Both the position numbers and the translations under genes were made by a program. The notes beneath the pieces were generated by a model. It saw nothing but the letters and a program-made list of their open reading frames with translations, did no database searches and was not told the origin of the DNA. Positions 19,054 to 64,000 of a stretch of DNA of 64,000 nt are shown piece by piece. Position 1 is the stretch's first letter; every line of letters begins with the position of its first letter. The stretch is taken from the NCBI GenBank assembly GCA_964016885.1, contig OZ024747.1, positions 62,496,001 to 62,560,000 of the forward strand. The letters run 5' to 3'. The stretch comes from Eledone cirrhosa. Taxonomy: Eukaryota.

Positions 19054-19109
19054 ACTGCTATATATATTTCGATGATAGCCATTGAATGGCTATGACCTCA
19101 TCAGGCAGT
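19054..19109 (-). ncRNA. Minimal type I hammerhead ribozyme
   Basis: Minus strand: ACTGC CTGATGA GGTC-ATAGCCAT-TCA-ATGGCTAT-CATC GAAA TATATA TA GCAGT. Stem I is a perfect 5 bp; cleavage triplet AUA. Confidence 0.85.
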
Positions 19110-20019: not shown

Positions 20020-20803
20020 CTGTCCCATGAATATGTACCAAAAGAAATTCTATGTGTGGTTTGGTTTCCAAATAATCTGAGTTTTCGGCAACAGGATCCT
20101 GTTTCTTGAAAACAAAGTCGTTTACTTCCCACCTATTACCCCAAACAAACCTCAATAGAACAGCAATCTATCTCCAGTAACATTTTAAAACGTCATAGCA
20201 CCTGACAGCTACCTATACCTGATAACTAGGCTTAATTATGGTGTTCAATTTTAAACGTGCGTAAAGAAGTTAGCCGACAAGAATGCTGTAGCGTGAATGA
20301 TCGACCTGCTACAATTAGTAGACAATTCCTTTCAAAACACACTGAATTGTATCAACATAAAAAGAATGATACCTTATTCCCGGAGTAAAATACGAGATGG
20401 CTATTAGTATATACTATAAGAAGAAAATGAAAAAGAAAAAGAAAAATAAAAAGAAAAAGAAGAAGAAGAATCAACAAAAATTCTTCATTGATATTCTATT
20501 TATCGACTCCCAAAGGATGAAAAGCGAAGAAGATGTGATCGGGGAAGGAGTTTGAGCGTAGAGCGCAAAGTGTCGAAACAAATACCGCAAGGTATTGTGT
20601 CACAATATATCACTGTATTTACTGTATTACAAACGTTTCATTAAATTACAGTATCTGAGGACTTGGTGAGGTTACCCTAAACATACGGAAAGTCAACAGC
20701 ATTGACTCAATCCTTATGCTTAGAGAATATATCGTGTGTATGTAACCCTAACTCCTGGTGGAGCCCCGGGGTTCCCCTACTGACATATGATGTGTCTTAG
20801 TTA

Positions 20804-22691
20804 TTTTAAACCTGTTTGAGCTCATCACTCTCCAGGTCTGAACGCAGTTTTAAACCTGGTTTGGCCCATCACTCTCCAGGTCTGTACACAGCTAATTTTA
20901 AACCTGGTTTGGCCCATCACTCTCCAGGTCTGTACACAGTTAATTTTAAACCTGGTTTAGCACATCACTCTCCAGGTCTGTACACAGTTAATTTTAAACC
21001 TGGTTTAGCACATCACTCTCCAGGTCTGTACACAGTTAATTTTAAACCTGGTTTAGCACATCACTCTCCAGGTCTGTACACAGTTAATTTTAAACCTGGT
21101 TTAGCACATCACTCTCCAGGTCTGTACACAGTTAATTTTAAACCTGGTTTAGCACATCACTCTCCAGGTCTGTACACAGTTAATTTTAAACCTGGTTTAG
21201 CACATCACTCTCCAGGTCTGTACACAGTTAATTTTAAACCTGGTTTAGCACATCACTCTCCAGGTCTGTACACAGTTAATTTTAAACCTGGTTTAGCACA
21301 TCACTCTCCAGGTCTGTACACAGTTAATTTTAAACCTGGTTTAGCACATCACTCTCCAGGTCTGTACACAGTTAATTTTAAACCTGGTTTAGCACATCAC
21401 TCTCCAGGTCTGTACACAGTTAATTTTAAACCTGGTTTAGCACATCACTCTCCAGGTCTGTACACAGTTAATTTTAAACCTGGTTTAGCACATCACTCTC
21501 CAGGTCTGTACACAGTTAATTTTAAACCTGGTTTAGCACATCACTCTCCAGGTCTGTACACAGTTAATTTTAAACCTGGTTTAGCACATCACTCTCCAGG
21601 TCTGTACACAGTTAATTTTAAACCTGGTTTAGCACATCACTCTCCAGGTCTGTATACAGCTAATTTTAAACCTGGTTTAGCACATCACTCTCCAGGTCTG
21701 TACACAGTTAATTTTAAACCTGGTTTAGCACATCACTCTCCAGGTCTGTACACAGTTAATTTTAAACCTGGTTTAGCACATCACTCTCCAGGTCTGAATA
21801 CAGCTAATTTTAAACCTGGTTTAGCACATCACTCTCCAGGTCTGTACACAGCTAATTTTAAACCTGGTTTAGCACATCACTCTCCAGGTCTGTACACAGC
21901 TAATTTTAAACCTGTTTTAGCACATCACTCTCCAGGTCTGTACACAGCTAATTTTAAACCTGGTTTAGCACACCACTCTCCAGGTCTGTACACAGCTAAT
22001 TTTAAACCTGGTTTAGCACATCACTCTCCAGGTCTGTACACAGTTAATTTTAAACCTGTTTTAGCACATCACTCTCCAGGTCTGTACACAGTTAATTTTA
22101 AACCTGGTTTAGCACATCACTCTCCAGGTCTGTACACAGCTAATTTTAAACCTGGTTTAGCACATCACTCTCCAGGTCTGTACACAGCTAATTTTAAACC
22201 TGGTTTAGCACATCACTCTCCAGATCTGTACACAGTTAATTTTAAACCTGGTTTAGCACATCACTCTCCAGGTCTGTACACAATTAAATTTAAACCTGGT
22301 TTAGCACATCACTCTCCAGGTCTGTACACAGCTAATTTTAAACCTGGTTTAGCACATCACTCTCCAGGTCTGTACACAGTTAATTTAAAACCCGGTTTAG
22401 CACATCACTCTCCAGGTCTGAATACAGTTAATTTTAGACCTGGTTTAGCACATCACTCTCCAGGTCTGTACACAGTTAATTTTAAACCTGGTTTAGCACA
22501 TCACTCTCCAGGTCTGTACACAGCTAATTTTAAACCTGGTTTAGCACATCACTCTCCAGGTCTGTACACAGCTAATTTTAAACCTGGTTTAGCACATCAC
22601 TCTCCAGGTCTGTACACAGCTAATTTTAAACCTGGTTTAGCACATCACTCTCCAGGTCTGAATACAGCTAATTTAAAACCTGGTTTAGCAC
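20804..22691. repeat. 48-bp minisatellite, about 39 copies
   Basis: Unit AATTTTAAACCTGGTTTAGCACATCACTCTCCAGGTCTGTACACAGTT. Reads as an open 16-aa repeat on the + strand. Confidence 0.98.
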
Positions 22692-24269
22692 AGAAGGAGA
22701 AGCAATGATATCAAGGAAGTGAGAAAGAGACAAAAGATGTAGAAGATAAATCGACATTAGTAGTAGACTGGTACTTCTTTTATCGACCTAGAAAGGATGG
22801 AAAGCTCCATTGATCTCTGCCGGATTTGAACTCAGAACGTAGAGGGTTAGAACGAATAGCTTATGATCACAATGTTCTGGCTTTGATTCTCATATCAGGT
22901 GATACGTTGTGTTCATTCGTAAGGCATTTCATTTCATGTTGCTCCTGTTCACTCATCTGCAATGATTACCAGCAGTAGCGGCAACTGGAAGTTAACCCTG
23001 AGATGAGGCGGTGTCCCGTCAAGGGGAGGATAAGTATTGTATTATGAGTCGGTTAACACTTCCAGCTCGAGCAGATATAAAAAAAAGAAACAGACGTAAA
23101 ATGATAATTCTAACTCTTTAGGATTGTACTAATTGTCTTTTTAAAGGTTTTGTGGTATTTTTGTTGTTGTGAGGATATTTAGCTACTCACTCTAGCAGCT
23201 CAAGTAACGTGCTCGGAGTACGGTCGTTAGTTTATTAAAATTGCGCTGTTACTTCATTGAGAGAATACTTCCTGTTGCAGAAGGCTTTTCTTCACTTCTA
23301 TTGACAAAACCAACAAAGATTTAGAAAATAAAAATAGATATGGCTGCTAAGTCTTCTCTTTTGTAGTAATTTGCTACAGAATTTTCTTTTGACGCTCTGG
23401 AAAGTAATGAAGTGAACAGAGCTGTCAGTTGAGAGACTCTTTCATGATTTACATTGACGTTTTATTGTGATGGTTTCTGTCATTGCTTTGGAACACATCA
23501 CTTGAATTTAATTTCTTATCCAGTCTAAATAGGTTCCACTTCTTAGATCGAAAGGAAAATATTGGAATTTATGTTTTTTTGTTTTTTTTTGTTTTGTTTT
23601 GTTTGTTTCAACGAGAAGTTATATTTAACCAGTAACAATGAAGAAATTCAAATCTGTTTTAATTAATTTTTCTCAAAATAAAAACAATATTGACGAAATG
23701 ATGAACTAGTAAGATTTATCGGGTCAGAAATATATAAAGGAAGGACGAAAACAAAATAGAAAGAAAGAGTGTTTGATTAAAAACTTTGAAAGAGAGCCAA
23801 CAACTATTTTATTAATTATAAGTATTTTAGAGAATATAAAAGGAATCATTAATTATAGAAATGGCGTATCTCCCAAACAGAACTTCAATTAAGTATGATT
23901 GCTTCTGTGATTGAATCACAGAAGCTTTAATTGATTGCTTTTCAGTTGAATGTGGTGTTAATTCTTGAGAGGATTTAGTGTCAGCCTTTTTCATTGACAA
24001 TTCACATTTCAATGTGTTAAAATTTGCCTTACATTTCTCCAGTTCCATACCCAATAAATTAGATATCAATAATGTATTAGGTACAATATAATCGATTACA
24101 GTTTTCCGTTACAAAATTTGGTTTTACTTCCATGGAAGTAATTAATATTTTCTAGCGTCAAGTTGTTCTTCTCTTTGTAATAATTGGAAACTTCATTGAC
24201 AGCTTCACATGTTTATTGTATCGTCCAAGAGTTGGTACTGTATTAAGTTCCTCACTAAAAACATTTGAT

Positions 24270-24908: not shown

Positions 24909-25313
24909 CTATGTATATATATATTATATATATATATATATAACTATGTATATATATATATTATATATATATATAACTATGTATATATATATTATATATA
25001 TATATAACTATGTATATATATAAAAACAAATAACGAAACGAAATTAAATTTCGTTTCGTTTGTAACTCACTTTTGTATGACTGACGCTTAAACAATTAAG
25101 TTAAAAATGTACATCCACATATGTATACTGAAATACTAGTATGCATATGAATACACACACGTGTACATATGTAGATGTACCGAGTTTTCACTGGTCACTT
25201 TACTGTGAGTGTCCAGCTATTCTGTATGTAAACACACATACAAACCGGTTTTTAGAGTCATACTGGTTTTTGAGGAAACACCTTTCCTCTATTCTCCAGA
25301 AAGCCAGACAAGG

Positions 25314-25358
25314 AATATTGGACTAGTTTCGATGTTGTTACATCTCATCAGCAATATT
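25314..25358 (-). ncRNA. Canonical minimal type I hammerhead ribozyme
   Basis: Minus strand: AATATTG CTGATGA GATGT-AACA-ACATC GAAA CTAG TC CAATATT. Perfect 7-bp stem I, 5-bp stem II with a G-C closing pair, palindromic ACUAGU stem III, GUC cleavage triplet. Confidence 0.93.
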
Positions 25359-25754
25359 TACCTATCTTCCGGCCTCTCTAGAGAATCGTGAAAGCACATA
25401 TCGCTATATGCTTTTTCTATGAAAATTAGTAGTGGGCAGACCAATTTGCATAGAGCGTGAGTACGTACCGGTTCAACGGAGACGATAAAAACAAATAACG
25501 AAACGAAATTAAATTTCGTTTCGTTTGTAACTCACTTTTGTATGACTGACGCTTAAACAATTAAGTTAAAAATGTACATCCACATATGTATACTGAAATA
25601 CGTGTGTGTATTCATATGCATACTAGTATTTCAGTATACATATGTGGATGTACATTTTTAACTTAATTTTTAACTTAATTGTTTATGTATATATATATTA
25701 TATATATACATATATATATATATTATATATATATATAACTATGTATATATATAT

Positions 25755-27028: not shown

Positions 27029-27030
<2 letters not shown>

Positions 27031-27217
27031 CAAGGGAAAAGTGGTAAGGAACCAGGTGGACCATAACGCACCAAAGTACTCAATACTTAGGGTAGTAGAG
27101 TGGGTAATAGGAGTAAGTAAGACCCCGACGGCTGAGCTCAAGCCGTTTCGACGGAGTACAGAATTAGCCGTCGAAACGGCTTGAGCTCAGCCATCGGGGT
27201 CTTACTTACTCCTATTA
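27029..27217 (-). mobile_element. Penelope-like fold-back unit with two 3' half-hammerheads
   Basis: Arms about 27105-27154 and 27168-27217. Each arm carries GAAA CGGCT-TGAGCTC-AGCCR TC GGGG. GAGTAC motif at 27076-27081. Second copy at 41785-41997. Confidence 0.75.
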
Positions 27218-28660: not shown

Positions 28661-28814
28661 GTAATAAACAACATAAGATCATTATTTCATTTACCAAAGG
28701 CTTAGTGAAACCTTTGGTAAATAAAATAATTACCTTATGTTGTTTATTACATAACTAAAAAGCTCTATAGCCTACATAGAGCACTCTCTTCTCTTTTGCC
28801 TTTCCTACGGAAAC

Positions 28815-28817
<3 letters not shown>
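28661..28817 (+). mobile_element. Penelope-like fold-back unit
   Basis: Arms 28661-28700 / 28711-28750 centred on GAAA CC-TTT-GG TA; GAGCAC at 28779. Same family as 9285-9650. Confidence 0.7.
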
Positions 28818-28880
<63 letters not shown>

Positions 28881-28883
28881 AAT

Positions 28884-29083
28884 ATTAGAAATTGAACAAC
28901 ATAATATATAACTACTACATTACCAAAGGTTTCAGGAACCCTAGACAGTATTAACATACGTGTAGTAAACCTTTGGTAATGGAGAAGTTATATACTGTGT
29001 TGTTCAATTTCTAATTAAATAGCTCTGTTTTATACATAGAGCACTCTTTTTTTTCCTTTGCTTTTTCTTCGGAAATACTTAAC
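28884..29083 (+). mobile_element. Penelope-like fold-back unit
   Basis: Arms 28884-28932 / 28967-29015 include (G)AAACCTTTGGTA. The tail is homologous to the reverse complement of 9525-9640. Confidence 0.7.
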
Positions 29084-29086
29084 ATA

Positions 29087-29298
29087 TAAGTATAAAGAAA
29101 GTGCTGAAGCGCAGAAATGCTATAAAGATAGCTTATAAAATACGGTGAAGACCTTAAAAAGATGGCAAAAGGTGCCATTGGGTGCTATTCCTCATAGCAG
29201 CCGATGGCAACTTCTTTTTCCGTCTTTTAAAGGCCTTCACTCTATTTTATAAGCTATCTTTATAACCATTCTGCGCTTGAGCACTTTCTTTATACTTA
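29087..29298. mobile_element. MITE-like imperfect palindrome, about 212 bp
   Basis: The whole element is an inverted repeat around a loop near 29190 and is flanked by TA. Confidence 0.75.
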
Positions 29299-30135
29299 TA
29301 TATACAAACATATATTCTCAGAGCTTTAAAAGCCGAAAATATATTAATATGTTTAAAACATATATCATCCGATTCAAGACCCAATGTAGCAATGTCGTTA
29401 TGTCGACGTAGTATATTCAGAAAGTTAGAGGATGATAACTGAGAAAGTAATTTAGCAGACTTTATAAGGGGTAAGATTTGTGGATGTATTGAAAATAGCG
29501 TAGAGTTAGGAATACATAAAGCATATTATACAGTTGCATGGATGGAGTTATAAGAAGAAAAAAGAAGAGATAAACAACTAAAAATAAATGAGATACGATA
29601 ATAGTATTATATACTGTTGGTAATTGGTCAAAGAATTCCTCGGTAATAATTCAGTTGAAAGAGATTTGCAGATGATGCCATTAACAAAGACATTCTTTGT
29701 TTCCATGAAAGTTGATATGTGGATGTTATGAGGTTCAATAAATATATCCTATTGGTGATTGTATACGATGTATCACACAGTGTCTTTACGTTCTGGGTTC
29801 AAAACCCACTGAGACCAATTGTGTGTGTCATCCTTACAGGATCGATAAAATAAAGTAGTAATCAAGTACTGGGTTCGATTTAATTAATTAACTTTCCTCT
29901 TCTCATTAAATTACTAGCCTTGTGACTGAATCTGAGATCTTTAATATGTTATATGAGTATTATACCACATGTAATATGTCATAAGTGTTAAAAACCTATC
30001 TGAAAAGGATATGTTTCAGAAAATGTTTTATGAAGTGGATATTTCCTCGATATTGTACATAAAGACTGAATGTTTAGTGGCGCTCTTAATGACATATGGA
30101 AGATATTATTTAATTATTATAGTCAGCCAAGCATA

Positions 30136-32825: not shown

Positions 32826-32960
32826 GAAAACAGGGAGAAAAAGACGATTATGAGGAAGAAAAATATATTTTCTTCCTTTTTTTTGTGTCTCTCTCTCAAA
32901 AAAAAAAAGGAAGAAAATATATTTTTCTTCCTCATAATCGTCTTTTTCTCCCTGTTTTCA
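32825..32960. repeat. Inverted repeat with about 60-bp arms in (TA)n
   Basis: TGAAAACAGGGAGAAAAAGACGATTATGAGGAAGAAAAATATATTTTCTTCC... and its reverse complement. Confidence 0.92.
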
Positions 32961-33024: not shown

Positions 33025-33205
33025 AGTCTCGGGTTCAATCGGGGGCAACCACAGTTAGTAAAGTACTCAATACATAGTAGGCTATATACAATATTTAATA
33101 TAGAAATGGCTTCTACAGGACTAGAACTGTTTCATTCGAAGGAAATGATGATTTCCTTCGAATGAAACAGTTCTAATCATCTAGAAGCCATTTCTATATT
33201 AAGTC

Positions 33206-33460: not shown

Positions 33461-34520
33461 ATCCAGTCTATCTTCTATATAGCTGGAAATATTTTTGTTA
33501 TTGGTACAAAATATTGTAAAGAAAACGTGTATAATTTCTCTAAAACTCTCGGTTTCACTAAATTTCATGTTTGAAACTGAGTCATACCAAAAGTCGGCCA
33601 TCTCTGTAAAGCTGAGATTCTGTGTGTGAAAATGTACCATTTAATGTATTTTAAAGTGTAGTTGAGTTATTGATTCACATACAACGTTAGAAGGGATATA
33701 TTTGTATTTTTTCGTAATCCTAATAGCTTTATCACAATGTAAAATGTAGAATTGTATTAATTTATACCGCTTTGATAGTTGCGAAATATTTAGCGAAATA
33801 TATTGTATTTAATATCAGAATTTCAGGAAAAAAATGCCTTTACAAATGTTGCTAAGTTGTTTTGATCTATTGAGAGATTATTTTCTATATAATTTTCCAG
33901 AGGCTGTGTTTTATACCTTAAACTGCACCTAAATGAGATAAAATTGTAGATATATGGTGAAGGGATTAATGGATTTGACATCACGTTTTTATACATATTT
34001 AATCCTTCCTATTAAACATATTTTCCTTTGAAGAATAAACAGTTTATTTTACTGTTATATTTATGGTTACCAATATTTCTTTTATACGAGAGATGTTATA
34101 AAAGAATGGTGAAGATAAGAACGTTAACTGTTGGACTTCAAAATTTCATATTTCAATTACTTATATGAGATTAGTTTGTAGATCTTTTGCTTATCATATT
34201 TTATCTCCTTTCTTTAGAAACGATAAAGAGTTCTATTACATAAAAAAAGCAGTTTGAATCGGGCAGCCATTATTGTTAAATTTGATAATGTACCTACGTT
34301 TTGCAATTAAATATGTTTTACAGTTGCTTTCCCTCTTACCCCCCCCCCCCCCCCCCCTTCTATCACACACACTCCCTCTCTCTATAAATACACACTCATA
34401 TATACATATATGGTATACATATATATGATATATAGATATAGATATATAATATATATATATATATATTATATATATATATTATATATATATATTATATATA
34501 TATATATATATATTATATAT

Positions 34521-34686
34521 ACGTTATTCCGGGTTGAATCGGAGGTAACCACAGTAAGTAAGGTACTCAATACATAGCAGAGTATAAAAGTTTTAATATA
34601 GATGAGATTCTACAGGACTAGAACTGTTTCATTCATTAGAAATCATTCTAATGAATGAAACAGTTCTAGTCCTGTAGAATCTCATC

Positions 34687-38628: not shown

Positions 38629-39270
38629 ACTAGCAGTGGTACCCGGCGTTGCACGGGATAAGGTATTTTGGAAGGCGGTCCGCCAACAGACCTAATCGTG
38701 GAAAAACTGCATGCCTGGACAATATGTAAAGAAAATAAACCGAATACTCTGATGGCTGCATAATCTTTAAGATTTTCCTCGATGAAGCAGGAAAAATGCA
38801 GGTTTTCACCTCATGCGAGCCCTAGGGAATCAAGAAAATGAATTTTTTTAATGTGCATAATATGCCTTGAAATTTTGGGAAAATCGGCTCGACCTAACGC
38901 CTCAAAAAAGCCCCCAAAAGCTGAAAAAATGAAGTTTTTCACCTAATGCGGGCCCTAGGCTATAAAAAGGTTGGATTTTCTTTGCTCAGGTAGGAAGAAG
39001 AGACTGACTAATACATAGTTACAATTTCAAGGAAATCGGTCTGACGTAACGCCTCAAAACCCCCCCCTAAAAGCTGAAAAAACTCAGTTTTCCACCTAGT
39101 GCGGGCCCTAGGGGATCAAAAAGTTGAACTTTTTTATGTGCATAACACTTCCTGAAACATAAGTAATACACATGTAAAGTTTGAAAAAAATAGGTTGGGT
39201 ACTTCTCGAGTTTTAGGGATTCAAACTCACAGACACACACACAGACATCCTCAGGTTTATATATATAGAT
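38629..39270 (+). mobile_element. Non-autonomous Helitron/Helentron-type (Lep1/HINE-like) element
   Basis: 5' ACTAGC..ACCCGGCGTTGCACGGG; internal tandem subrepeats (GTTTTCACCT.ATGCG.GCCCTAGG x3); CAGA/CA microsatellite and TTTATATATATAGAT at the 3' end. Confidence 0.7.
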
Positions 39271-39271
39271 G

Positions 39272-39428
39272 AATAGTGAGTCTTGTTACTCTAGAGTTTC
39301 GCCTGTTTATCACAGTTCCATCTGATGACCCTCTGTCAAACAGGCGAAACTGCAGAATAACAAGACTCACTATTTAGTTATAATAGAACTAATGTTAAAA
39401 CTTTACTTCGGTATTGAGTACTCGTTTC
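39272..39428 (+). mobile_element. Penelope-like fold-back unit with degenerate hammerhead
   Basis: Arms 39272-39308 / 39338-39374; CTGATGA 39322-39328, CCT/AGG stem II, GAAA 39346-39349. The inverted arm reads GAAA CTC-TA-GAG TA. GAGTAC at 39416-39421. Confidence 0.7.
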
Positions 39429-39639
39429 TCAGCGGAATTTGAACTCAGAACGTAAAGGCTCGTACTATATATCACGAAACATGTTGTCCGACACTCTATC
39501 GATTACTACCAAGTCTAAAGGAAGCATTTAATTGAAAACCAGCAGAATTAGACTCGGTTTTATTCCCAGAAATATTTTTATAATGAAAAATGGGAACATT
39601 GAATTTGTTGAATATTAACACAACGAGGATAATTTCAAT

Positions 39640-40621: not shown

Positions 40622-40691
40622 CATGAAGCAAAAGGCCACTTCTTAAGCATCCGTAATAACGGATGCTTAAGAAGTGGCCTTTTGCTTCATG
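40622..40691. repeat. Perfect hairpin, 33-bp arms, 4-nt loop
   Basis: CATGAAGCAAAAGGCCACTTCTTAAGCATCCGT-AATA-reverse complement. Confidence 0.95.
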
Positions 40692-41216: not shown

Positions 41217-41290
<74 letters not shown>

Positions 41291-41418
41291 AAAGTTATAT
41301 TTAAATTGTTGGGTTAACAACGAGTAAATATTTATAACTGATATAAAAGCACTCAACAAGTATTTGGAGTATATTTATGATATTAAATAAATGGAAACTA
41401 TATTTATAAAACCATATT

Positions 41419-41484
41419 TATTTCGTTATATATATTTCAGGGATATCATATTAACAATATGTTATGCCTTCTTTAGACAAAATA
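41419..41484 (-). ncRNA. Hammerhead copy with G5A core mutation (predicted inactive)
   Basis: Minus strand: TATTTTGT CTAAAGA AGG...CCT GAAA TATATA TA ACGAAATA. Confidence 0.75.
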
Positions 41485-41577
41485 CAATATAAACAGTCTT
41501 ATAAATAATCAACCTCCCAAATGCAAGGTGATTGAAAGGTATGTCGTATCTATTTATTTATAAGACTGTTTATATTG

Positions 41578-41643
41578 TATTTTGTCTGAAGAAGGTATAA
41601 CATATTGTTAATATGATATCCCTGAAATATATATAACGAAATA
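41578..41643 (+). ncRNA. Minimal type I hammerhead ribozyme
   Basis: Stem I TATTTTGT/ACGAAATA; CTGAAGA 41586-41592; stem II AGG..CATATT-GTT-AATATG..CCT; GAAA 41624-41627; stem III ATATATAT; cleavage triplet AUA. Confidence 0.88.
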
Positions 41644-41693
41644 AATATGGTTTTATAAATATAGTTTCCATTTATTTAATATCATATATATAC

Positions 41694-41784
<91 letters not shown>

Positions 41785-41785
<1 letters not shown>

Positions 41786-41994
41786 CGGAGGAAATGTGGT
41801 AAGGAACCAGGTGGACCATAACGCACCAAAGTACTCAATACTTGAGGTAGTAGAGTGGGTAATAGGAACCAGTAAGACCCCGACAGCTGAGCTCAAGCCG
41901 TTTCGACGGCTAATTCTGGACTCGACGGCTAATTCTGGAGTCCAGAATTAGCCGTCGAAACGGCTTGAGCTCAGCTGTCGGGGTCTTACTGGTT

Positions 41995-41997
<3 letters not shown>
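41785..41997 (-). mobile_element. Penelope-like fold-back unit, same family as 27029-27217
   Basis: Two inverted GAAA CGGCT..AGCTG TC GGGG half-ribozymes joined through the palindrome GACGGCTAATTCTGGA-G-TCCAGAATTAGCCGTC. Confidence 0.78.
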
Positions 41998-42128: not shown

Positions 42129-42607
42129 TTAATATAAATTAATATATTTGATAAACACGAATACCAACATATCTGTGTTTGTATTGTAAATGACTAAGTT
42201 AGCTAGATTGAAAAATTAGCACCACGGCCATTTGCCAATATGCTTTGTTTTTATTGATTTATTATTTTAAATCGAGACAGGCAAACTGTATTATTATAAT
42301 CTAGCTAACTAAGTAAATGACTAAGTTAGCTAGATTATAATTGTTTCTACGTTAGGCACAAGGCCACCAATTACCCAGTGTATTACTGGTACTTTATTTT
42401 ATCGACCCTGTAAGGATGAAAGGCCGAGGTTAACTTTGCCTTTCATCCTTACAGGGTCGATAAAATAAAGTACCAGTAATACACTGGAAAATTGGTGGCC
42501 TTGTGCCTAACGTAGAAACAATTATAATCTAGCTAACTTAGTCATTTACAATACAAACACAGATATGTTGGTATTCGTGTTTATTAAATATATTAATTTA
42601 TGTTAAC
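42129..42607. repeat. Local inverted duplication containing a folded SINE1
   Basis: 42314-42424 is the reverse complement of 42438-42549; 42129-42209 is the reverse complement of 42526-42607. Confidence 0.9.
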
Positions 42608-51121: not shown

Positions 51122-51251
51122 TACACACTGTGTATGTGTGCGTGGTTTCCAAAAAGTGGTTGCAAAGGGTTCATCTGAATATACAGACGGATTAAAGGTA
51201 AAAAAGCACTAAACTTCTGTTTTAATCGTAGAGACGCCGTCTTAACACATA

Positions 51252-54200
51252 GGCATTAAGACAGAACAGATACCCAGGTGTTAAGACAGAACAGATACCC
51301 AGGTATTAAGACAGAACAGATACCCAGGCATTAAGACAGAACAGATACCCAGGTATTAAGACAGAACAGATACCCAGGCATTAAGACAGAACAGATACCC
51401 AGGTATTAAGACAGAACAGATACCCAGGTATTAAGACAGAACAGATACCCAGGCATTAAGACGGAACAAATACCGAGGTATTAAGACAGAACAGATACCC
51501 AGGTATTAAGACAGAACAGATACCGAGGTATTAAGACAGAACAGATACCGAGGTATTAAGACAGAACAGATACCCAGGTATTAAGACAGAACAGATACCC
51601 AGGCATTAAGACAGAACAGATACCGAGGTATTAAGACAGAACAGATACCCAGGTATTAAGACAGAACAGATACCCAGGTATTAAGACAGAACAGATACCC
51701 AGGCATTAAGACAGAACAGATACCGAGGTATTAAGACAGAACAGATACCCAGGCATTAAGACAGAACAGATACCCAGGTATTAAGACAGAACAGATACCC
51801 AGGCATTAAGACAGAACAGATACCGAGGTATTAAGACAGAACAGATACCCAGGTATTAAGACAGAACAGATACCCAGGTATTAAGACAGAACAGATACCC
51901 AGGCATTAAGACAGAACAGATACCCAGGTATTAAGACAGAACAGATACCCAGGTATTAAGACAGAACAGATACCCAGGCATTAAGACAGAACAGATACCG
52001 AGGTATTAAGACAGAACAGATACCCAGGTGTTAAGACAGAACAGATACCCAGGTATTAAGACAGAACAGATACCCAGGCATTAAGACAGAACAGATACCG
52101 AGGTATTAAGACAGAACAGATACCCAGGTATTAAGACAGAACAGATACCGAGGTATTAAGACAGAACAGATACCCAGGCATTAAGACAGAACAGATACCC
52201 AGGTATTAAGACAGAACAGATACCGAGGTATTAAGACAGAACAGATACCCAGGTATTAAGACAGAACAGATACCGACGTATTAAGACAGAACAGATACCC
52301 AGGTATTAAGACAGAACAGATACCCAGGCATTAAGACAGAACAGATAGCGAGGTATTAAGACAGAACAGATACCCAGGTATTAAGACAGAACAGATACCC
52401 AGGTATTAAGACAGAACAGATACCCAGGCATTAAGACAGAACAGATACCCAGGTATTAAGACAGAACAGATACCCAGGTATTAAGACAGAACAGATACCC
52501 AGGCATTAAGACAGAACAGATACCGAGGTATTAAGACAGAACAGATACCCAGGTATTAAGACAGAACAGATACCGAGGTATTAAGACAGAACAGATACCG
52601 AGGTATTAAGACAGAACAGATACCCAGGTATTAAGACAGAACAGATACCCAGGTATTAAGACAGAACAGATACCCAGGTATTAAGACAGAACAGATACTG
52701 AAGGTATTAAGACAGAACAGATACCCAGACATTAAGACAGAACAGATACCCAGGTATTAAGACAGAACAGATACCCAGGCATTAAGACAGAACAGATACC
52801 CAGACATTAAGACAGAACAGATACCCAGGTATTAAGACAGAACAGATACCCAGGCATTAAGACAGAACAGATACCCAGGCATTAAGACAGAACAGATACC
52901 CAGGTATTAAGACAGAACAGATACCCAGGCATTAAGACAGAACAGATACCCAGGCATTAAGACAGAGCAGATACCCAGGTATTAAGACAGAACAGATACC
53001 CAGGTATTAAGACAGAACAGATACCCAGACATTAAGACAGAACAGATACCCAGACATTAAGACAGAACAGATACGCAGGTATTAAGACAGAACAGATACC
53101 CAGGCATTAAGACAGAACAGATACCGAGGTATTAAGACAGAACAGATACCCAGGTATTAAGACAGAACAGATACCCAGGCATTAAGACAGAACAGATACC
53201 GAGGTATTAAGACAGAACAGATACCCAGGCATTAAGACAGAACAGATACCCAGGTATTAAGACAGAACAGATACCCAGACATTAAGTCAGAACAGATACC
53301 GAGGTATTAAGACAGAACAGATACCCAGACATTAAGACAGAACAGATACCCAGGCATTAAGACAGAACAGATACCCAGGTATTAAGACAGAACAGAGACC
53401 CAGACATTAAGTCAGAACAGATACCCAGGTATTAAGACAGAACAGATACCCAGACATTAAGACAGAACAGATACCCAGGTATTAAGACAGAACAGATACC
53501 CAGACATTAAGACAGAACAGATACCCAGGTATTAAGACAGAACAGAGACCCAGACATTAAGTCAGAACAGATACCCAGGTATTAAGACAGAACAGATACC
53601 CAGACATTAAGTCAGAACAGATACCCAGGTATTAAGACAGAACAGATACCCAGGCATTAAGACAGAACAGATACCCAGGCATTAAGACAGAACAGATACC
53701 CAGGCATTAAGACAGAACAGATACCCAGGTATTAAGACAGAACAGATACCCAGGTATTAAAACAGAACAGATACCCAGACATTAAGACAGAACAGATACC
53801 CAGACATTAAGACAGAACAGATACCCAGGTATTAAGACAGAACAGATACCCAGGCATTAAGACAGAACAGATACGCAGGTATTAAGACAGAACAGATACC
53901 CAGGCATTAAGACAGAACAGATACCCAGGTATTAAGACAGAACAGGTACCCAGACATTAAGACAGAACAGATACCCAGGTATTAAGACAGAACAGATACC
54001 CAGGTATTAAGACAGAACAGATACCCAGGCATTAAGACAGAACAGATACCCAGGTATTAAGACAGAACAGATACCCAGGCATTAAGACAGAACAGATACC
54101 CAGGTATTAAGACAGAACAGATACCCAGGTATTAAGACAGAACAGAGACCCAGACATTAAGTCAGAACAGATACCCAGGTATTAAGACAGAACAGGTACC

Positions 54201-57200
54201 CAGGTATTAAGACAGAACAGATACCCAGGCATTAAGACAGAACAGATACCCAGGTATTAAGACAGAACAGATACCCAGGTATTAAGACAGAACAGATACC
54301 CAGACATTAAGACAGAACAGATACCCAGACATTAAGACAGAACAGATACCCAGGTATTAAGACAGAACAGATACCCAGGCATTAAGACAGAACAGATACG
54401 CAGGTATTAAGACAGAACAGATACCCAGGCATTAAGACAGAACAGATACCCAGGTATTAAGACAGAACAGGTACCCAGACATTAAGACAGAACAGATACC
54501 CAGGTATTAAGACAGAACAGATACCCAGGTATTAAGACAGAACAGATACCCAGGCATTAAGACAGAACAGATACCCAGGTATTAAGACAGAACAGATACC
54601 CAGGCATTAAGACAGAACAGATACCCAGGTATTAAGACAGAACAGATACCCAGGTATTAAGACAGAACAGAGACCCAGACATTAAGTCAGAACAGATACC
54701 CAGGTATTAAGACAGAACAGATACCCAGACATTAAGACAGAACAGATACCCAGGTATTAAGACAGAACAGGTACCCAGACATTAAGACAGAACAGATACC
54801 CAGGTATTAAGACAGAACAGAGACCCAGACATTAAGTCAGAACAGATACCCAGGTATTAAGACAGAACAGATACCCAGGTATTAAGACAGAACAGATACC
54901 GAGGTGTTAAGACAGAACAGATACCCAGGCATTAAGACAGAACAGATACCCAGGCATTAAGACAGAACAGATACCCAGGTATTAAGACAGAACAGATACC
55001 GAGGTGTTAAGACAGAACAGATACCCAGGCATTAAGACAGAACAGATACCCAGGTATTAAGACAGAACAGATACCCAGGTATTAAGACAGAACAGATACC
55101 CAGGCATTAAGACAGAACAGATACCCAGGTATTAAGACAGAACAGATACCCAGACATTAAGTCAGAACAGATACCGAGGTATTAAGACAGAACAGATACC
55201 CACACATTAAGACAGAACAGATACCCAGGCATTAAGACAGAACAGATACCCAGGTATTAAGACAGAACAGATACCCAGACATTAAGTCAGAACAGATACC
55301 GAGGTATTAAGACAGAACAGATACCCAGACATTAAGACAGAACAGATATCCAGGCATTAAGACAGAACAGATACCCAGGTATTAAGACAGAACAGAGACC
55401 CAGACATTAAGTCAGAACAGATACCCAGGTATTAAGACAGAACAGATACCCAGACATTAAGACAGAACAGATACCCAGGTATTAAGACAGAACAGATACC
55501 CAGACATTAAGACAGAACAGATACCCAGGTATTAAGACGGAACAGAGACCCAGACATTAAGTCAGAACAGATACCCAGGTATTAAGACAGAACAGATACC
55601 CAGACATTAAGTCAGAACAGATACCCAGGTATTAAGACAGAACAGATACCCAGGCATTAAGACAGAACAGATACCCAGGCATTAAGACAGAACAGATACC
55701 CAGGCATTAAGACAGAACAGATACCCAGGTATTAAGACAGAACAGATACCCAGGTATTAAGACAGAACAGATACCCAGACATTAAGACAGAACAGATACC
55801 CAGACATTAAGACAGAACAGATACCCAGGTATTAAGACAGAACAGATACCCAGGCATTAAGACAGAACAGATACGCAGGTATTAAGACAGAACAGATACC
55901 CAGGCATTAAGACAGAACAGATACCCAGGTATTAAGACAGAACAGGTACCCAGACATTAAGACAGAACAGATACCCAGGTATTAAGACAGAACAGATACC
56001 CAGGTATTAAGACAGAACAGATACCCAGGCATTAAGACAGAACAGATACCCAGGTATTAAGACAGAACAGATACCCAGGCATTAAGACAGAACAGATACC
56101 CAGGTATTAAGACAGAACAGAGACCCAGACATTAAGTCAGAACAGATACCCAGGTATTAAGACAGAACAGATACCCAGACATTAAGACAGAACAGATACC
56201 CAGGTATTAAGACAGAACAGGTACCCAGACATTAAGACAGAACAGATACCCAGGTATTAAGACAGAACAGAGACCCAGACATTAAGTCAGAACAGATACC
56301 CAGGTATTAAGACAGAACAGATACCCAGGTATTAAGACAGAACAGATACCGAGGTGTTAAGACAGAACAGATACCCAGGCATTAAGACAGAACAGATACC
56401 CAGGCATTAAGACAGAACAGATACCCAGGTATTAAGACAGAACAGATACCGAGGTGTTAAGACAGAACAGATACCCAGGCATTAAGACAGAACAGATACC
56501 CAGGTATTAAGACAGAACAGATACCCAGGTATTAAGACAGAACAGATACCCAGGCATTAAGACAGAACAGATACCCAGGTATTAAGACAGAACAGATACC
56601 CAGACATTAAGTCAGAACAGATACCGAGGTATTAAGACAGAACAGATACCCACACATTAAGACAGAACAGATACCCAGGCATTAAGACAGAACAGATACC
56701 CAGGTATTAAGACAGAACAGAGACCCAGACATTAAGTCAGAACAGATACCCAGGTATTAAGACAGAACAGATACCCAGACATTAAGACAGAACAGATACC
56801 CAGGTATTAAGACAGAACAGGTACCCAGACATTAAGACAGAACAGATACCCAGGTATTAAGACAGAACAGAGACCCAGACATTAAGTCAGAACAGATACC
56901 CAGGTATTAAGACAGAACAGATATCCAGGTATTAAGACAGAACAGATACCGAGGTGTTAAGACAGAACAGACACCCAGGCATTAAGACAGAACAGATACC
57001 CAGGCATTAAGACAGAACAGATACCCAGGGATTAAGACAGAACAGATACCGAGGTGTTAAGACAGAACAGATACCCAGGCATTAAGACAGAACAGATACC
57101 CAGGTATTAAGACAGAACAGATACCCAGGTATTAAGACAGAACAGATACCCAGGCATTAAGACAGAACAGATACCCAGGTATTAAGACAGAACAGATACC

Positions 57201-60200
57201 CAGACATTAAGTCAGAACAGATACCGAGGTATTAAGACAGAACAGATACCCAGACATTAAGACAGAACAGATACCCAGGCATTAAGACAGAACAGATACC
57301 CAGGTATTAAGACAGAACAGAGACCCAGACATTAAGTCAGAACAGATACCCAGGTATTAAGACAGAACAGATACCCAGACATTAAGACAGAACAGATACC
57401 CAGGTATTAAGACAGAACAGATACCCAGACATTAAGACAGAACAGATACCCAGGTATTAAGACAGAACAGATACCCAGACATTAAGTCAGAACAGATACC
57501 CAGGTATTAAGACAGAACAGATACCCAGGTATTAAGACAGAGCAGATACCCAGGCATTAAGACAGAACAGATACCCAGGTATTAAGACAGAACAGATACC
57601 CAGGTATTAAGACAGAACAGATACCCAGACATTAAGACAGAACAGATACCCAGACATTAAGACAGAACAGATACCCAGGTGTTAAGACAGAACAGATACC
57701 CAGGTGTTAAGACAGAACAGATACCCAGGTGTTAAGACAGAACAGATACCCAGGCATTAAAACAGAACAGATACCCAGACATTAAAACAGAACAGATACC
57801 CAGGTGTTAAGACAGAACAGATACCCAGGTGTTAAGACAGAACAGATACCCAGGTGTTAAGACAGAACAGATACCCAGACATTAAAACAGAACAGATACC
57901 CAGACATTAAAACAGAACAGATACCCAGACATTAAGTCATAACAGATACCCAGGTATTAAGACAGAACAGATACCCAGGTGTTAAGACAGAACAGATACC
58001 CAGGCATTAAGACAGAACAGATACCCAGGTATTAAGACAGAACAGATACCCAGGCATTAAGACAGAACAGATACCCAGACATTAAGACAGAACAGATACC
58101 CAGGCATTAAGACAGAACAGATACCCAGGCATTAAGACAGAACAGATACCCAGGTATTAAGACACAACAGATACCCAGGTATTAAGACAGAACAGATACC
58201 CAGGCATTAAGACAGAACAGATACCCAGGTGTTAAGACAGAACAGATACCCAGGTGTTAAGACAGAACAGATACCCAGACATTAAAACAGAACAGATACC
58301 CAGGTGTTAAGACAGAACAGATACCCAGACATTAAAACAGAACAGATACCCAGGTGTTAAGACAGAACAGATACCCAGGTGTTAAGACAGAACAGATACC
58401 CAGGCATTAAGACAGAACAGATACCCAGGTGTTAAGACAGAACAGATACCCAGGTGTTAAGACAGAACAGATACCCAGGTGTTAAGACAGAACAGATACC
58501 CAGACATTAAAACAGAACAGATACCCAGGTGTTAAGACAGAACAGATACCCAGGTGTTAAGACAGAACAGATACCCAGACATTAAGACAGAACAGATACC
58601 CAGGTATTAAGACAGAACAGATACCCAGGTGTTAAGACAGAACAGATACCCAAGTATTAAGACAGAACAGATACCGAGGTGTTAAGACAGAACAGATACC
58701 CAGGTATTAAGACAGAACAGATACTCAGGCATTAAGACAGAACAGATACCCAGGTGTTAAGACAGAACAGATACCCAGGTGTTAAGACAGAACAGATACC
58801 CAGGTGTTAAGACAGAACAGATACCCAGACATTAAAACAGAACAGATACCCAGGTGTTAAGACAGAACAGATACCCAGGTGTTAAGACAGAACAGATACC
58901 CAGACATTAAGACAGAACAGATACCCAGGTATTAAGACAGAACAGATACCCAGGTGTTAAGACAGAACAGATACCCAAGTATTAAGACAGAACAGATACC
59001 GAGGTGTTAAGACAGAACAGATACCCAGGTATTAAGACAGAACAGATACTCAGGCATTAAGACAGAACAGATACCCAGGTATTAAGACAGAACAGATACC
59101 CAGACATTAAAACAGAACAGATACCCAGACATTAAGACAGAACAGATACCCAGGCATTAAGACAGAACAGATACCGAGGTTTTAAGACAGAACAGATACC
59201 CAGAGATTAAGACAGAACAGATACCCAGGTATTAAGACAGAACAGATACCCAGGTATTAAGACAGAACAGATACCCAGGCATTAAGACAGAACAGATACC
59301 GAGGTGTTAAGACAGAACAGATACCCAGGTATTAAGACAGAACAGATACCCAGGCATTAAGACAGAACAGATACCCAGGCATTAAGACAGAACAGATACC
59401 CAGGTATTAAGACAGAACAGATACCGAGGTGTTAAGACAGAACAGATACCCAGGTATTAAGACAGAACAGATACCCAGGCGTTAAGACAGAACAGATACC
59501 CAGGTATTAAGACAGAACAGATACCCAGGTATTAAGACAGAACAGATACCCAGGTATTAAGACAGAACAGATACCCAGGCATTAAGACAGAACAGATACC
59601 CAGGTATTAAGACAGAACAGATACCGAGGTGTTAAGACAGAACAGATACCCAGGTATTAAGACAGAACAGATACCCAGGCGTTAAGACAGAACAGATACC
59701 CAGGTATTAAGACGGAACAGATACCCAGGTATTAAGACAGAACAGATACCCAGGTGTTAAGACAACAGATACCCAGGCATTAAGACAGAACAGATACCCA
59801 GGTGTTAAGACAACAGATACCCAGGCATTAAGACAGAACAGATACCCAGGTATTAAGACAACTGATACCCAGGTATTAGGACAGAACAGATACCCAGGTA
59901 TTAAGACAGAACAGATACCCAGGTATTAAGACAACTGATACCGAGGTGTTAAGACAGAACAGATACCCAGGTATTAAGACAACTGATACCGAGGTGTTAA
60001 GACAGAACAGATACCCAGGTATTAAGACAGAACAGATACTCAGACATTAAGACAGAACAGATACCCAGGTGTTAAGACAACAGATACCCGGGTATTAAGA
60101 CAGAACAGATACCCAGGCATTAAGACAGAACAGATACCCAGGCATTAAGACAGAACAGATACCCAGGCATTAAGACAGAACAGATACCCAGACATTAAGA

Positions 60201-63200
60201 CAACTGATACCCAGGCATTAAGACAGAACAGATACCGAGGTGTTAAGACAGAACAGATACCCAGGCATTAAGACAGAACAGATACCCAGGCATTAAGACA
60301 GAACAGATACCCAGGCATTAAGACAGAACAGATACCCAGACATTAAGACAACTGATACCCAGGCATTAAGGCAGAACAGATACCGAGGTGTTAAGACAGA
60401 ACAGATACCCAGGCATTAAGACAGAACAGATACCCAGGTATTAAGACAGAACAGATACCCAGGCATTAAGACAGAACAGATACCCAGGTATTAAGACAGA
60501 ACAGATACCGAGGTGTTAAGACAGAACAGATACCCAGGCATTAAGACAGAACAGATACCCAGGTATTAAGACAGAACAGATACCCAGGCATTAAGACAGA
60601 ACAGATACCCAGGCATTAAGACAGAACAGATACCCAGGTATTAAGACAGAACAGATACCGAGGTGTTAAGACAGAACAGATACCCAGGCATTAAGACAGA
60701 ACAGATACCCAGGTATTAAGACAGAACAGATACCCAGGTATTAAGACAGAACAGATACCGAGGTGTTAAGACAGAACAGATACCCAGGTATTAAGACAGA
60801 ACAGATACCCAGGCATTAAGACAGAACAGATACCCAGACATTAAGACAGAACAGATACCCAGGTATTAAGACAGAACAGATACCCAGGCATTAAGACAGA
60901 ACAGATACCCAGGTATTAAGACAGAACAGATACCGAGGTGTTAAGACAGAACAGATACCCAGGTATTAAGACAGAACAGATACCCAGGCATTAAGACAGA
61001 ACAGATACCCAGGTATTAAGACAGAACAGATACCCAGGTATTAAGACAGAACAGATACCCAGGTATTAAGACAGAACAGATACCCAGGTATTAAGACAGA
61101 ACAGATACCGAGGTGTTAAGACAGAACAGATACCCAGGCATTAAGACAGAACAGATACCCAGGCATTAAGACAGAACAGATACCCAGGCATTAAGACAGA
61201 ACAGATACCCAGGTATTAAGACAGAACAGATACCGAGGTGTTAAGACAGAACAGATACCGAGGTGTTAAGACAGAACAGATACCCAGGTATTAAGACAGA
61301 ACAGATACCCAGACATTAAGACAGAACAGATACCCAGGCATTAAGACAGAACAGATACCTAGACATTAAGACAGAACAGATACCCAGGTATTAAGACAGA
61401 ACAGATACCCAGGTATTAAGACAGAACAGATACCGAGGTGTTAAGACAGAACAGATACCCAGGTATTAAGACAGAACAGATACCCAGGCATTAAGACAGA
61501 ACAGATACCCAGGTATTAAGACAGAACAGATACCGAGGTGTTAAGACAGAACAGATACCCAGGTATTAAGACAGAACAGATACCCAGGCATTAAGACAGA
61601 ACAGATACCCAGACATTAAGACAGAACAGATACCCAGGTGTTAAGACAGAACAGATACCCAGACATTAAGACAGAACAGATACCCAGGTATTAAGACAGA
61701 ACAGATACCCAGGTGTTAAGACAGAACAGATACCCAGGTATTAAGACAGAACAGATACCGAGGTGTTAAGACAGAACAGATACCCAGGTATTAAGACAGA
61801 ACAGATACTCAGGCATTAAGACAGAACAGATACCCAGGTATTAAGACAGAACAGATACCCAGACATTAAAACAGAACAGATACCCAGACATTAAGACAGA
61901 ACAGATACCCAGGTATTAAGACAGAACAGATACCCAGGCATTAAGACAACAGATACCGAGGTTTTAAGACAGAACAGATACCCAGACATTAAGACAGAAC
62001 AGATACCCAGACATTAAGACAGAACAGATACCCAGGTATTAAGACAGAACAGATACCCAGGCATTAAGACAGAACAGATACCGAGGTGTTAAGACAGAAC
62101 AGATACCCAGGCATTAAGACAGAACAGATACCCAGGCATTAAGACAGAACAGATACCGAGGTGTTAAGACAGAACAGATACCCAGGTATTAAGACAGAAC
62201 AGATACCCAGGCGTTAAGACAGAACAGATACCCAGGTATTAAGACAGAACAGATACCCAGGTATTAAGACAGAACAGATACCCAGGTATTAAGACAGAAC
62301 AGATACCCAGGCATTAAGACAGAACAGATACCCAGGTATTAAGACAGAACAGATACCGAGGTGTTAAGACAGAACAGATACCCAGGTATTAAGACAGAAC
62401 AGATACCCAGGCGTTAAGACAGAACAGATACCCAGGTATTAAGACGGAACAGATACCCAGGTATTAAGACAGAACAGATACCCAGGTGTTAAGACAACAG
62501 ATACCCAGGCATTAAGACAGAACAGATACCCAGGTGTTAAGACAACAGATACCCAGGCATTAAGACAGAACAGATACCCAGGTATTAAGACAACTGATAC
62601 CCAGGTATTAGGACAGAACAGATACCCAGGTATTAAGACAGAACAGATACCCAGGTATTAAGACAACTGATACCGAGGTGTTAAGACAGAACAGATACCC
62701 AGGTATTAAGACAACTGATACCGAGGTGTTAAGACAGAACAGATACCCAGGTATTAAGACAGAACAGATACTCAGACATTAAGACAGAACAGATACCCAG
62801 GTGTTAAGACAACAGATACCCGGGTATTAAGACAGAACAGATACCCAGGCATTAAGACAGAACAGATACCCAGGCATTAAGACAGAACAGATACCCAGAC
62901 ATTAAGACAACTGATACCCAGGCATTAAGACAGAACAGATACCGAGGTGTTAAGACAGAACAGATACCCAGGCATTAAGACAGAACAGATACCCAGGCAT
63001 TAAGACAGAACAGATACCCAGGCATTAAGACAGAACAGATACCCAGACATTAAGACAACTGATACCCAGGCATTAAGGCAGAACAGATACCGAGGTGTTA
63101 AGACAGAACAGATACCCAGGCATTAAGACAGAACAGATACCCAGGTATTAAGACAGAACAGATACCCAGGCATTAAGACAGAACAGATACCCAGGTATTA

Positions 63201-64000
63201 AGACAGAACAGATACCGAGGTGTTAAGACAGAACAGATACCCAGGCATTAAGACAGAACAGATACCCAGGTATTAAGACAGAACAGATACCCAGGCATTA
63301 AGACAGAACAGATACCCAGGCATTAAGACAGAACAGATACCCAGGTATTAAGACAGAACAGATACCGAGGTGTTAAGACAGAACAGATACCCAGGCATTA
63401 AGACAGAACAGATACCCAGGTATTAAGACAGAACAGATACCCAGGTATTAAGACAGAACAGATACCGAGGTGTTAAGACAGAACAGATACCCAGGTATTA
63501 AGACAGAACAGATACCCAGGCATTAAGACAGAACAGATACCCAGACATTAAGACAGAACAGATACCCAGGTATTAAGACAGAACAGATACCCAGGCATTA
63601 AGACAGAACAGATACCCAGGTATTAAGACAGAACAGATACCGAGGTGTTAAGACAGAACAGATACCCAGGTATTAAGACAGAACAGATACCCAGGCATTA
63701 AGACAGAACAGATACCCAGGTATTAAGACAGAACAGATACCCAGGTATTAAGACAGAACAGATACCCAGGTATTAAGACAGAACAGATACCCAGGTATTA
63801 AGACAGAACAGATACCGAGGTGTTAAGACAGAACAGATACCCAGGCATTAAGACAGAACAGATACCCAGGCATTAAGACAGAACAGATACCCAGGCATTA
63901 AGACAGAACAGATACCCAGGTATTAAGACAGAACAGATACCGAGGTGTTAAGACAGAACAGATACCGAGGTGTTAAGACAGAACAGATACCCAGGTATTA
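51252..64000. repeat. 25-bp satellite array (about 500 units, continues past the window end)
   Basis: Unit TTAAGACAGAACAGATACCCAGGTA with recurrent variants (GGCA, GACA, GGTG, CCGAG, AGTCAG, 2-bp deletion). Confidence 0.99.

Follow-up and report, generated by a model that had tools for sequence, protein, structure and literature searches.

An inverted hammerhead pair in Eledone cirrhosa as a probable Penelope-like insertion into (TA)n, with a covarying hairpin in its one-sided tail

Two hammerhead ribozyme motifs that face each other at one locus, one with a canonical core and the other with the G5A change, raise the question of whether they form a working pair or are what a mobile element left behind. 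The locus lies in a stretch of 64,000 nt of the Eledone cirrhosa genome (GenBank GCA_964016885.1, contig OZ024747.1, forward-strand positions 62,496,001 to 62,560,000), referred to here as the window. The region concerned is 41237-41784; the window as a whole is A+T-rich and full of (TA)n tracts and repeats, some of whose words presumably resemble cephalopod SINEs. Elsewhere the window contains a strongly strand-skewed satellite in which a 25-nt unit is repeated 511 times (51251-64000, continuing past the window edge), a 40-copy array of a 48-nt unit with one frame open for 632 codons (20799-22692) and a frameshifted fragment of a LINE-type reverse transcriptase (1485-2406; PF00078).

In the pair, the 3′ end of an abundant repeat that carries a hammerhead is present twice, in inverted orientation, within (TA)n. 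The near identity of the arms claimed in an earlier note on this DNA extends over 137 nt each, 41554-41690 (+) and 41508-41372 (-) being identical at 134 of 137 positions without gaps. The three differences are 41588 G/41474 A (G5A, read on the element strand), 41596 T/41466 C, at an unpaired spot of stem II, and 41687 T/41375 A, at the join to the TA repeat, where the family varies. An 81-nt tail overlooked previously (41290-41371) also belongs to the element, giving the order (TA)n, tail, inverted arm, longer arm, (TA)n. The features of the locus, and of two related ones in the window, are as follows.

41237-41288, no strand: left (TA)n flank, likely target
41290-41371, minus strand: one-sided tail, 81 nt of element sequence, ending in (TA)n
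41348-41370, minus strand: bulged hairpin that opens the tail, with 4 bp, a 2-nt bulge and a further 3 bp, common to Penelope-like element (PLE) loci of other animals
41372-41508, minus strand: minus arm, inverted copy of the same 3′ end, 5′-truncated further than the plus arm
41419-41484, minus strand: type I hammerhead motif with G5A at 41474
41509-41553, plus strand: spacer of 45 nt, family sequence 5′ of the plus arm, at multi-copy depth, with contigs continuous over 41538-41621
41554-41690, plus strand: plus arm, element 3′ end (pseudo-LTR piece), halting at the short end and entering (TA)n
41578-41643, plus strand: type I hammerhead motif; its core (41586-41592) is canonical, the cut is predicted to follow 41635, and C-to-T at 41596 is private
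41679-41784, no strand: right (TA)n flank, likely target
10055-10162, plus strand: solo copy of a sister subfamily with another stem II (motif at 10063), halting at the short end before (TA)n
10553-12346, plus strand: separate insertion of a Hydra-type PLE with a truncated GIY-YIG ORF (to 11390), showing the same insertion plan with coding sequence

Both arms fit a descriptor for type I hammerheads and belong to one family, as had been proposed, with an 8-bp stem I, the core, a 12-bp stem II with two mismatches, GAA and the palindromic ATATATAT; H17 is A in both (41635 and 41427), and pair 10.1-11.1 is A-U instead of the usual G-C. The cores read CTGAAGA (+) and CTAAAGA (-), exactly as described before: the plus arm has C3-U-G-A-N-G-A9, G12-A-A14, A15.1-U16.1 and H17, with the predicted cut 55 nt 5′ of the short end of the element, and the minus arm departs from the hammerhead consensus through G5A at 41474. 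A descriptor search of the window gave five matches with a canonical core and one with the G5A core, against none in 30 dinucleotide shuffles of 51 kb searched for the canonical core only. Rfam models gave no hammerhead match in the window at gathering score, nor in 41280-41700 at E<=10, where only miRNA-hairpin models matched, far under their cut-offs. Hammerhead-like cores of other families are found at 19104 (-), 25351 (-), 33303 (-), 46324 (+), 9374 (-), 39322 (+) and 43 (+), a density in the window of roughly one core per 5 kb.

Contigs of four out of 16 listed public runs, among which no RNA run appeared, were aligned to 41286-41684 at 80% likeness, and 4,633, 683, 90 and 4 contigs matched. 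The repeat family is plainly large and very abundant, although summed contig depth is not a copy number; one run, X1, is possibly from the source sample. At G5 the family letter accounts for 328,583.4 of 328,624.3 summed depth in X1 (>99.98%) and for all depth in X4, X5 and X6, and at 41596 for 238,237.5 of 238,408.7, the plus arm being the one that deviates there. Each arm therefore has one private transition, and the notion of a designed pair, one member intact and one inactivated, is not supported, G5A being private to this locus and matched by a private change in the other arm. Tail and spacer are likewise family sequence by contig depth (tail summed depth 1.7e5-8e5), and the spacer was rejected as a separate promoter or linker because it is multi-copy family sequence. 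Other family copies terminate at about 41370 or 41291, within TA repeats. A 23-nt family word had no match in metagenome, viral and prokaryote collections.

Compared with the solo copy at 10063, stem I has both bases changed in one pair (A-U to G-C) and a single base changed at two further places, with pairing kept throughout, and stem II is a different sequence likewise able to pair, both as noted earlier. Since 97% of family depth has U on the 3′ side of the covarying stem I pair and the 5′ G has no listed variant, the commonest state is likely G-U, bridging A-U (10063) and G-C (this pair), as judged from depth sums over unphased contigs. The 10063-type stem II is present as loose ends of 39-43 contigs and thus represents a subfamily. 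Covariation had been put forward as direct evidence of selection on RNA structure; it lies between two subfamilies, in a two-sequence comparison, and argues for selection on the mobile source elements rather than on these two copies. It is real, and mirrors ancestral source elements rather than selection on the pair. Core position 7 varies freely in the family (A, G, T) and is the sole core position varying at 5% or more; conservation of the core bases within the family was set aside, not being significant alone since the flanks also vary little.

An isolated arm folds no better than its own shuffles (z -0.36 and -0.68), with pair probabilities of 0.84 for stem I and 0.94 for stem II; stem I drops to 0.11 once the spacer and tail-side flank are included, and stem III has a monomer pair probability of 0.006, its self-complementary octamer being compatible with a dimer form. 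PLE hammerheads with a palindromic helix III are described as cleaving weakly and as active in same-strand dimers (PMC4209133). Such a dimer is impossible here, as a head-to-head pair never places two sense copies on one RNA, and with stem III this weak the label 'intact' given to the plus copy is too strong. Read-through RNA was suspected of hiding the ribozyme in a long hairpin, and folding agrees: it forms a 137-bp hairpin (-195 kcal/mol; z -31.7) that outcompetes the ribozyme, so that all ribozyme stems have probability 0.000 in either read-through RNA. Neither arm is predicted to cleave. G5A, which serves as an inactive control (PMC4075628), is likely without consequence, given the lack of a dimer partner, the read-through hairpin and a report that ribozyme mutants of the one PLE studied in vitro still insert (PMC11167929).

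These results bear on the view that the host has kept a regulatory pair under selection at this locus, either as an active ribozyme beside a dead one or as a long hairpin giving rise to small RNAs or subject to editing. The 137-bp read-through hairpin and the near identity of the arms are what that view would lead one to expect, and with 2-3 differences the chance of striking G5 itself, as one of the two private changes does, is 1.5-2%. However, a young fold-back would be near-identical in any case, and a change at any of the 12 core bases would have seemed equally 'classic', the chance that one of 2-3 differences over 137 nt strikes one of them being 17-24%. Fold-backs also occur often in both the window and the family, most of them lacking whole cores, and another head-to-head pair, at a PLE locus described below (L084), has two intact cores. 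We regard a host-kept pair as very improbable.

The variety of these fold-backs is seen in X1, where 19 joints skip the centre (depth 7-93 among the joints listed). Among the 15 of 19 joints listed, none keeps both cores, two keep one and 13 keep neither, and one additional joint in a side table (41493/41569) keeps both; short contigs bias the joints towards the deep part, and library fold-backs possibly account for some of them. No contig of the four runs spans the whole pair. A tail-to-tail family joint (41649 to 41291) has a depth of 1,339, far above the other joints, and is perhaps an amplified compound form. In the masked window, 15 self-symmetric fold-backs were found, several of which follow the plan (TA)n, tail, arm, arm, (TA)n. 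At least four other families contribute more fold-backs of this kind (41785-41997, 27030-27212, 33025-33202, 34513-34686, 39264-39433 and 28666-29301), most of them cut inside or after the ribozyme core and with the tail hairpin on one side.

The pair is very probably a single PLE-driven insertion, involving nicks on both strands of (TA)n, two internally primed cDNAs, early stops, head-to-head joining and decay. It has the plan of a cut-down PLE, with a hammerhead near the 3′ end, a tail on one side, a (TA)n target and varied fold-back points, and the published PLE signature comprises an inverted 5′-truncated copy, a one-sided tail and (TA)n targets (PMC8557442). Head-to-head was called the commonest form in 2013 (PMC3846280), opposite-strand hammerhead pairs 100-700 bp apart were noted in 2014 (PMC4209133), and in an anole PLE the tail has been explained by two internal reverse transcriptase (RT) start sites (PMC11167929). 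A target-site duplication is indiscernible within (TA)n. The insertion is likely heavily 5′-truncated, its source probably being a Hydra clade PLE or a non-coding passenger of one. Hydra-clade PLEs described with (TA)n insertion include Penelope-13_HM, Penelope-1_NV and Hydra-1_Obim (Craig et al. 2021, PMC8557442), and among the entries in the supplement of that paper are one from octopus and one from Hydra, the latter having an inverted 5′ copy and hammerheads on both strands.

In the order of events that we infer, a PLE endonuclease would nick both strands of a (TA)n tract and RT would begin within the RNA at two fixed sites, one per strand, just 5′ of two small hairpins. The cDNA from the first site would give the short end at 41690 and that from the second site the long tailed end at 41290; both would stop early and then be joined head to head. 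Afterwards each arm would have gained one private transition (or RT error), that at 41474 happening to strike G5, and G5A is likely a product of neutral decay.

The same plan is seen with coding sequence at 10553-12346, where an inverted 120-nt copy of the element's own 3′ end lies at the left (10553-10672) and a 39-nt tail is found on the right side only. A hammerhead-like motif with a CCGAAGA core and a very long stem II is located near 12153. Three full-length relatives of the ORF (E 2e-21 to 1.5e-6) carry an RT and show the features of the Hydra clade, namely RWK, DKT and a CxCX5C linker in the absence of CCHH; classification as Neptune was rejected as the motifs fit Hydra. Pfam gave no family for the ORF piece of the window and a weak GIY-YIG in two of the three relatives. 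A tblastn search with three PLE proteins matched only 10617-11381 and tied no RT or endonuclease to the pair's family; an ORF with RT and C-terminal GIY-YIG occurs in another of the window's elements and in loci that have the tail hairpin described below in common with the pair. A link between this family and a PLE protein is putative.

With the window ORF, 86 loci were gathered, of which 40 lacked room (400 nt or more downstream) or a match. A sense hammerhead lies 3′ of the ORF in 23 of 46 loci with at least 400 nt downstream, and the 86 loci gave 38 hammerhead matches in total, against none in five shuffles. One locus (L084, 5780-6070), in an unrelated genome, carries two hammerheads head to head with 26 nt between them, both with intact cores, and has tail plus hairpin on one arm only, and the insertion plan recurs in independent assemblies (L084, L023, L041). 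The hammerhead of L011 is that of the Penelope-1_NV row in PMC8557442. Loci L079-L086 sit in genomes labelled bacterial and are likely animal DNA that was mis-binned.

The tail of the pair opens with ACTC-CAA-loop-TTG-TT-GAGT, 84 nt past GAAA. Where 130 nt of room is available, 14 of 31 locus hammerheads have a similar motif 73-89 nt past GAAA (background 0.6%), counted with a pattern drawn up after these sequences had been viewed. Across 17 aligned copies, pairing is kept in 118 of 119 cells and there are 21 double changes, 17 of which fall in the three inner pairs, unused in copy selection; RNAalifold gave the same structure, and the Hydra-2_Amil consensus (PMC8557442) terminates in the same hairpin. 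A model of the hairpin matched 52 times across window and loci, 35 matches being new, and 98.5% of 330 cells pair with 59 double changes, in a fitted alignment of related sequences that yields no probability. In the window all seven matches at E<=0.1 lie in one-sided tails beside fold-backs (four of the seven trained the model); with filters off there are three weaker ones, one beside a fold-back, one within one and one neither. The element at 10553-12346 has no match, even with filters off, so it is not an evident parent of the pair and the hairpin is not universal in the Hydra clade.

The likeness emerged only as structure, plain alignment of six window-family tails with that of the pair being non-significant (p 0.05-0.61). 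The idea that the tails conserve a reading frame was abandoned, as the pair's tail breaks the frame and the changes fit the hairpin. Within the hairpin alignment G-U exceeds A-C by 9 to 2, a weak hint in favour of the sense RNA, biased by the model.

Where sequence continues towards the ORF (11 loci), a second hairpin is found 55-66 nt past the first. Twin bulged hairpins in the interval from hammerhead to ORF start were located at 2366/2428 (L040), 4848/4909 (L047), 5849/5912 (L009), 847/909 (L041) and 3461/3523 (L016). Copy ends were then placed relative to the two hairpins in 29 within-family comparisons covering six families, of which three continue into the ORF, two reach a contig end and 24 are informative, the L047/L049 rows being maybe one insertion counted twice and TA-like joins blurring ends by a few bases. 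Nine of the 24 ends fall 0-8 nt before hairpin 1 and 12 fall 0-8 nt before hairpin 2; the remaining three, elsewhere, belong to more distant subfamilies, two of them near a contig end. The plus arm of the pair also halts just before its family's hairpin position. The second hairpin and the ORF were not seen in the pair's own family, whose 81-nt tail is longer than both the 30-40 nt in print and the 55-66 nt between hairpins in the 11 loci.

The tail hairpin likely marks where reverse transcription of these elements starts. Beyond that, we propose tentatively, as a possibility that falls somewhat short of even chances, that Hydra-type PLEs have two RCTC-NNN-loop-NNN-YY-GAGY-RCT hairpins about 55-66 nt apart past the hammerhead, each of which would dock one subunit of an RT dimer and set a start site a few bases 5′, and that this arrangement is unreported. 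The main text of PMC8557442 makes no mention of a hairpin or stem-loop, and no twin hairpin was found in the literature, a scope outside which lie subscription papers, Repbase notes and the supplementary RNA-fold figures of PMC11167929.

An alternative is that an older solo PLE copy was inverted later, through general fold-back repair or a template switch at (TA)n. Fold-backs of other repeats in the window, such as 42313-42549 and 32827-32958, in which neither hammerhead nor tail hairpin was found, are what such a process would predict. Against it, each outer end of the pair coincides with one of the two fixed 3′ ends of the family, flanking host DNA shows no duplication, and the seven window hairpin matches at E<=0.1 all lie in one-sided tails by fold-backs, so that a later inversion is highly unlikely. 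Fold-backs without hammerhead or tail hairpin were recorded at 42155-42580, 32827-32958, 12425-12539, 40622-40691 and 25088-25673, some nested and one SINE-like; they may be host sequence moved in trans by PLE machinery or the result of a separate fold-back process.

Long inverted arms, a short spacer and TA flanks would also suit a MITE-like DNA transposon with a TA target, the arms being terminal inverted repeats and the hammerhead a captured passenger, but the ends are unequal rather than a fixed inverted repeat, with 81 nt of tail on one side. The same sequence stands solo at 10063, the centre varies among copies (19 joints), and tail hairpin and spacing agree with RT-encoding loci, leaving this explanation with scarcely any probability. 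An assembly or library artefact, in which a fold-back chimera acquired G5A as a base error, is suggested by the lack of a contig covering the whole stretch and by the trouble that palindromes are said to give assemblies (PMC8557442), and is hardly credible given that the arms differ in length and at two inner sites, that the residual X1 depth of up to 41 at G5 fits one real locus and that the plan recurs in independent assemblies.

As a probable PLE-driven insertion, the pair shares with Hydra-clade PLEs the (TA)n targets, the one-sided tail and a type I hammerhead that lies close to the 3′ end and has a palindromic stem III, and with Penelope-13_HM an inverted 5′-truncated copy with a hammerhead on each strand (PMC8557442). 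It differs from the Hydra-clade elements in that its family has no linked ORF, in its long, A+U-rich, A-U-closed stem II and in its 81-nt tail. With the PLE hammerheads of Cervera and de la Pena 2014 (PMC4209133) it shares a weak palindromic helix III with predicted dimer use, sequence families with compensatory changes and opposite-strand pairs 100-700 bp apart, but it has no extra base between 9 and 10.1, no G10.1-C11.1 and an 8-bp stem I. Like PAc, a Poseidon element of the green anole with two internal RT starts 3′ of the hammerhead (Frangieh et al. 2024, PMC11167929), it has a short end and a tailed end; in PAc one AC-rich stem loop lies within the ORF, whereas in the loci analysed here a bulged hairpin occurs twice at a spacing of about 60 nt, each copy lying just 3′ of an end. 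Non-LTR retrozymes are likewise non-coding animal repeats of small size that contain type I hammerheads, and are regarded as PLE-derived (PMC7229834; bioRxiv 10.64898/2026.07.22.740005). They form head-to-tail tandem arrays, unlike the copies here, which are dispersed, solo or head-to-head, and have PLE ends; no head-to-tail array of the pair's family (150-450 nt units) was found within the window.

The pair is a known form of insertion plus a chance mutation and in itself matters little, except as a warning that 'classic' inactivating changes arise often among thousands of dead copies. The origin of PLE tails and inverted ends has been named an open question (PMC8557442), and only one PLE has been studied in vitro, so the hairpin carries more weight than the pair. 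If the proposal is true, two hairpins would account for the one-sided tail and for head-to-head insertions together, and the pair would be the minimal footprint of a two-primer insertion. A short covarying RNA signal whose position predicts both ends lends itself to a direct mutational test, and the hairpin may serve as a marker for PLE remnants that have neither ORF nor ribozyme.
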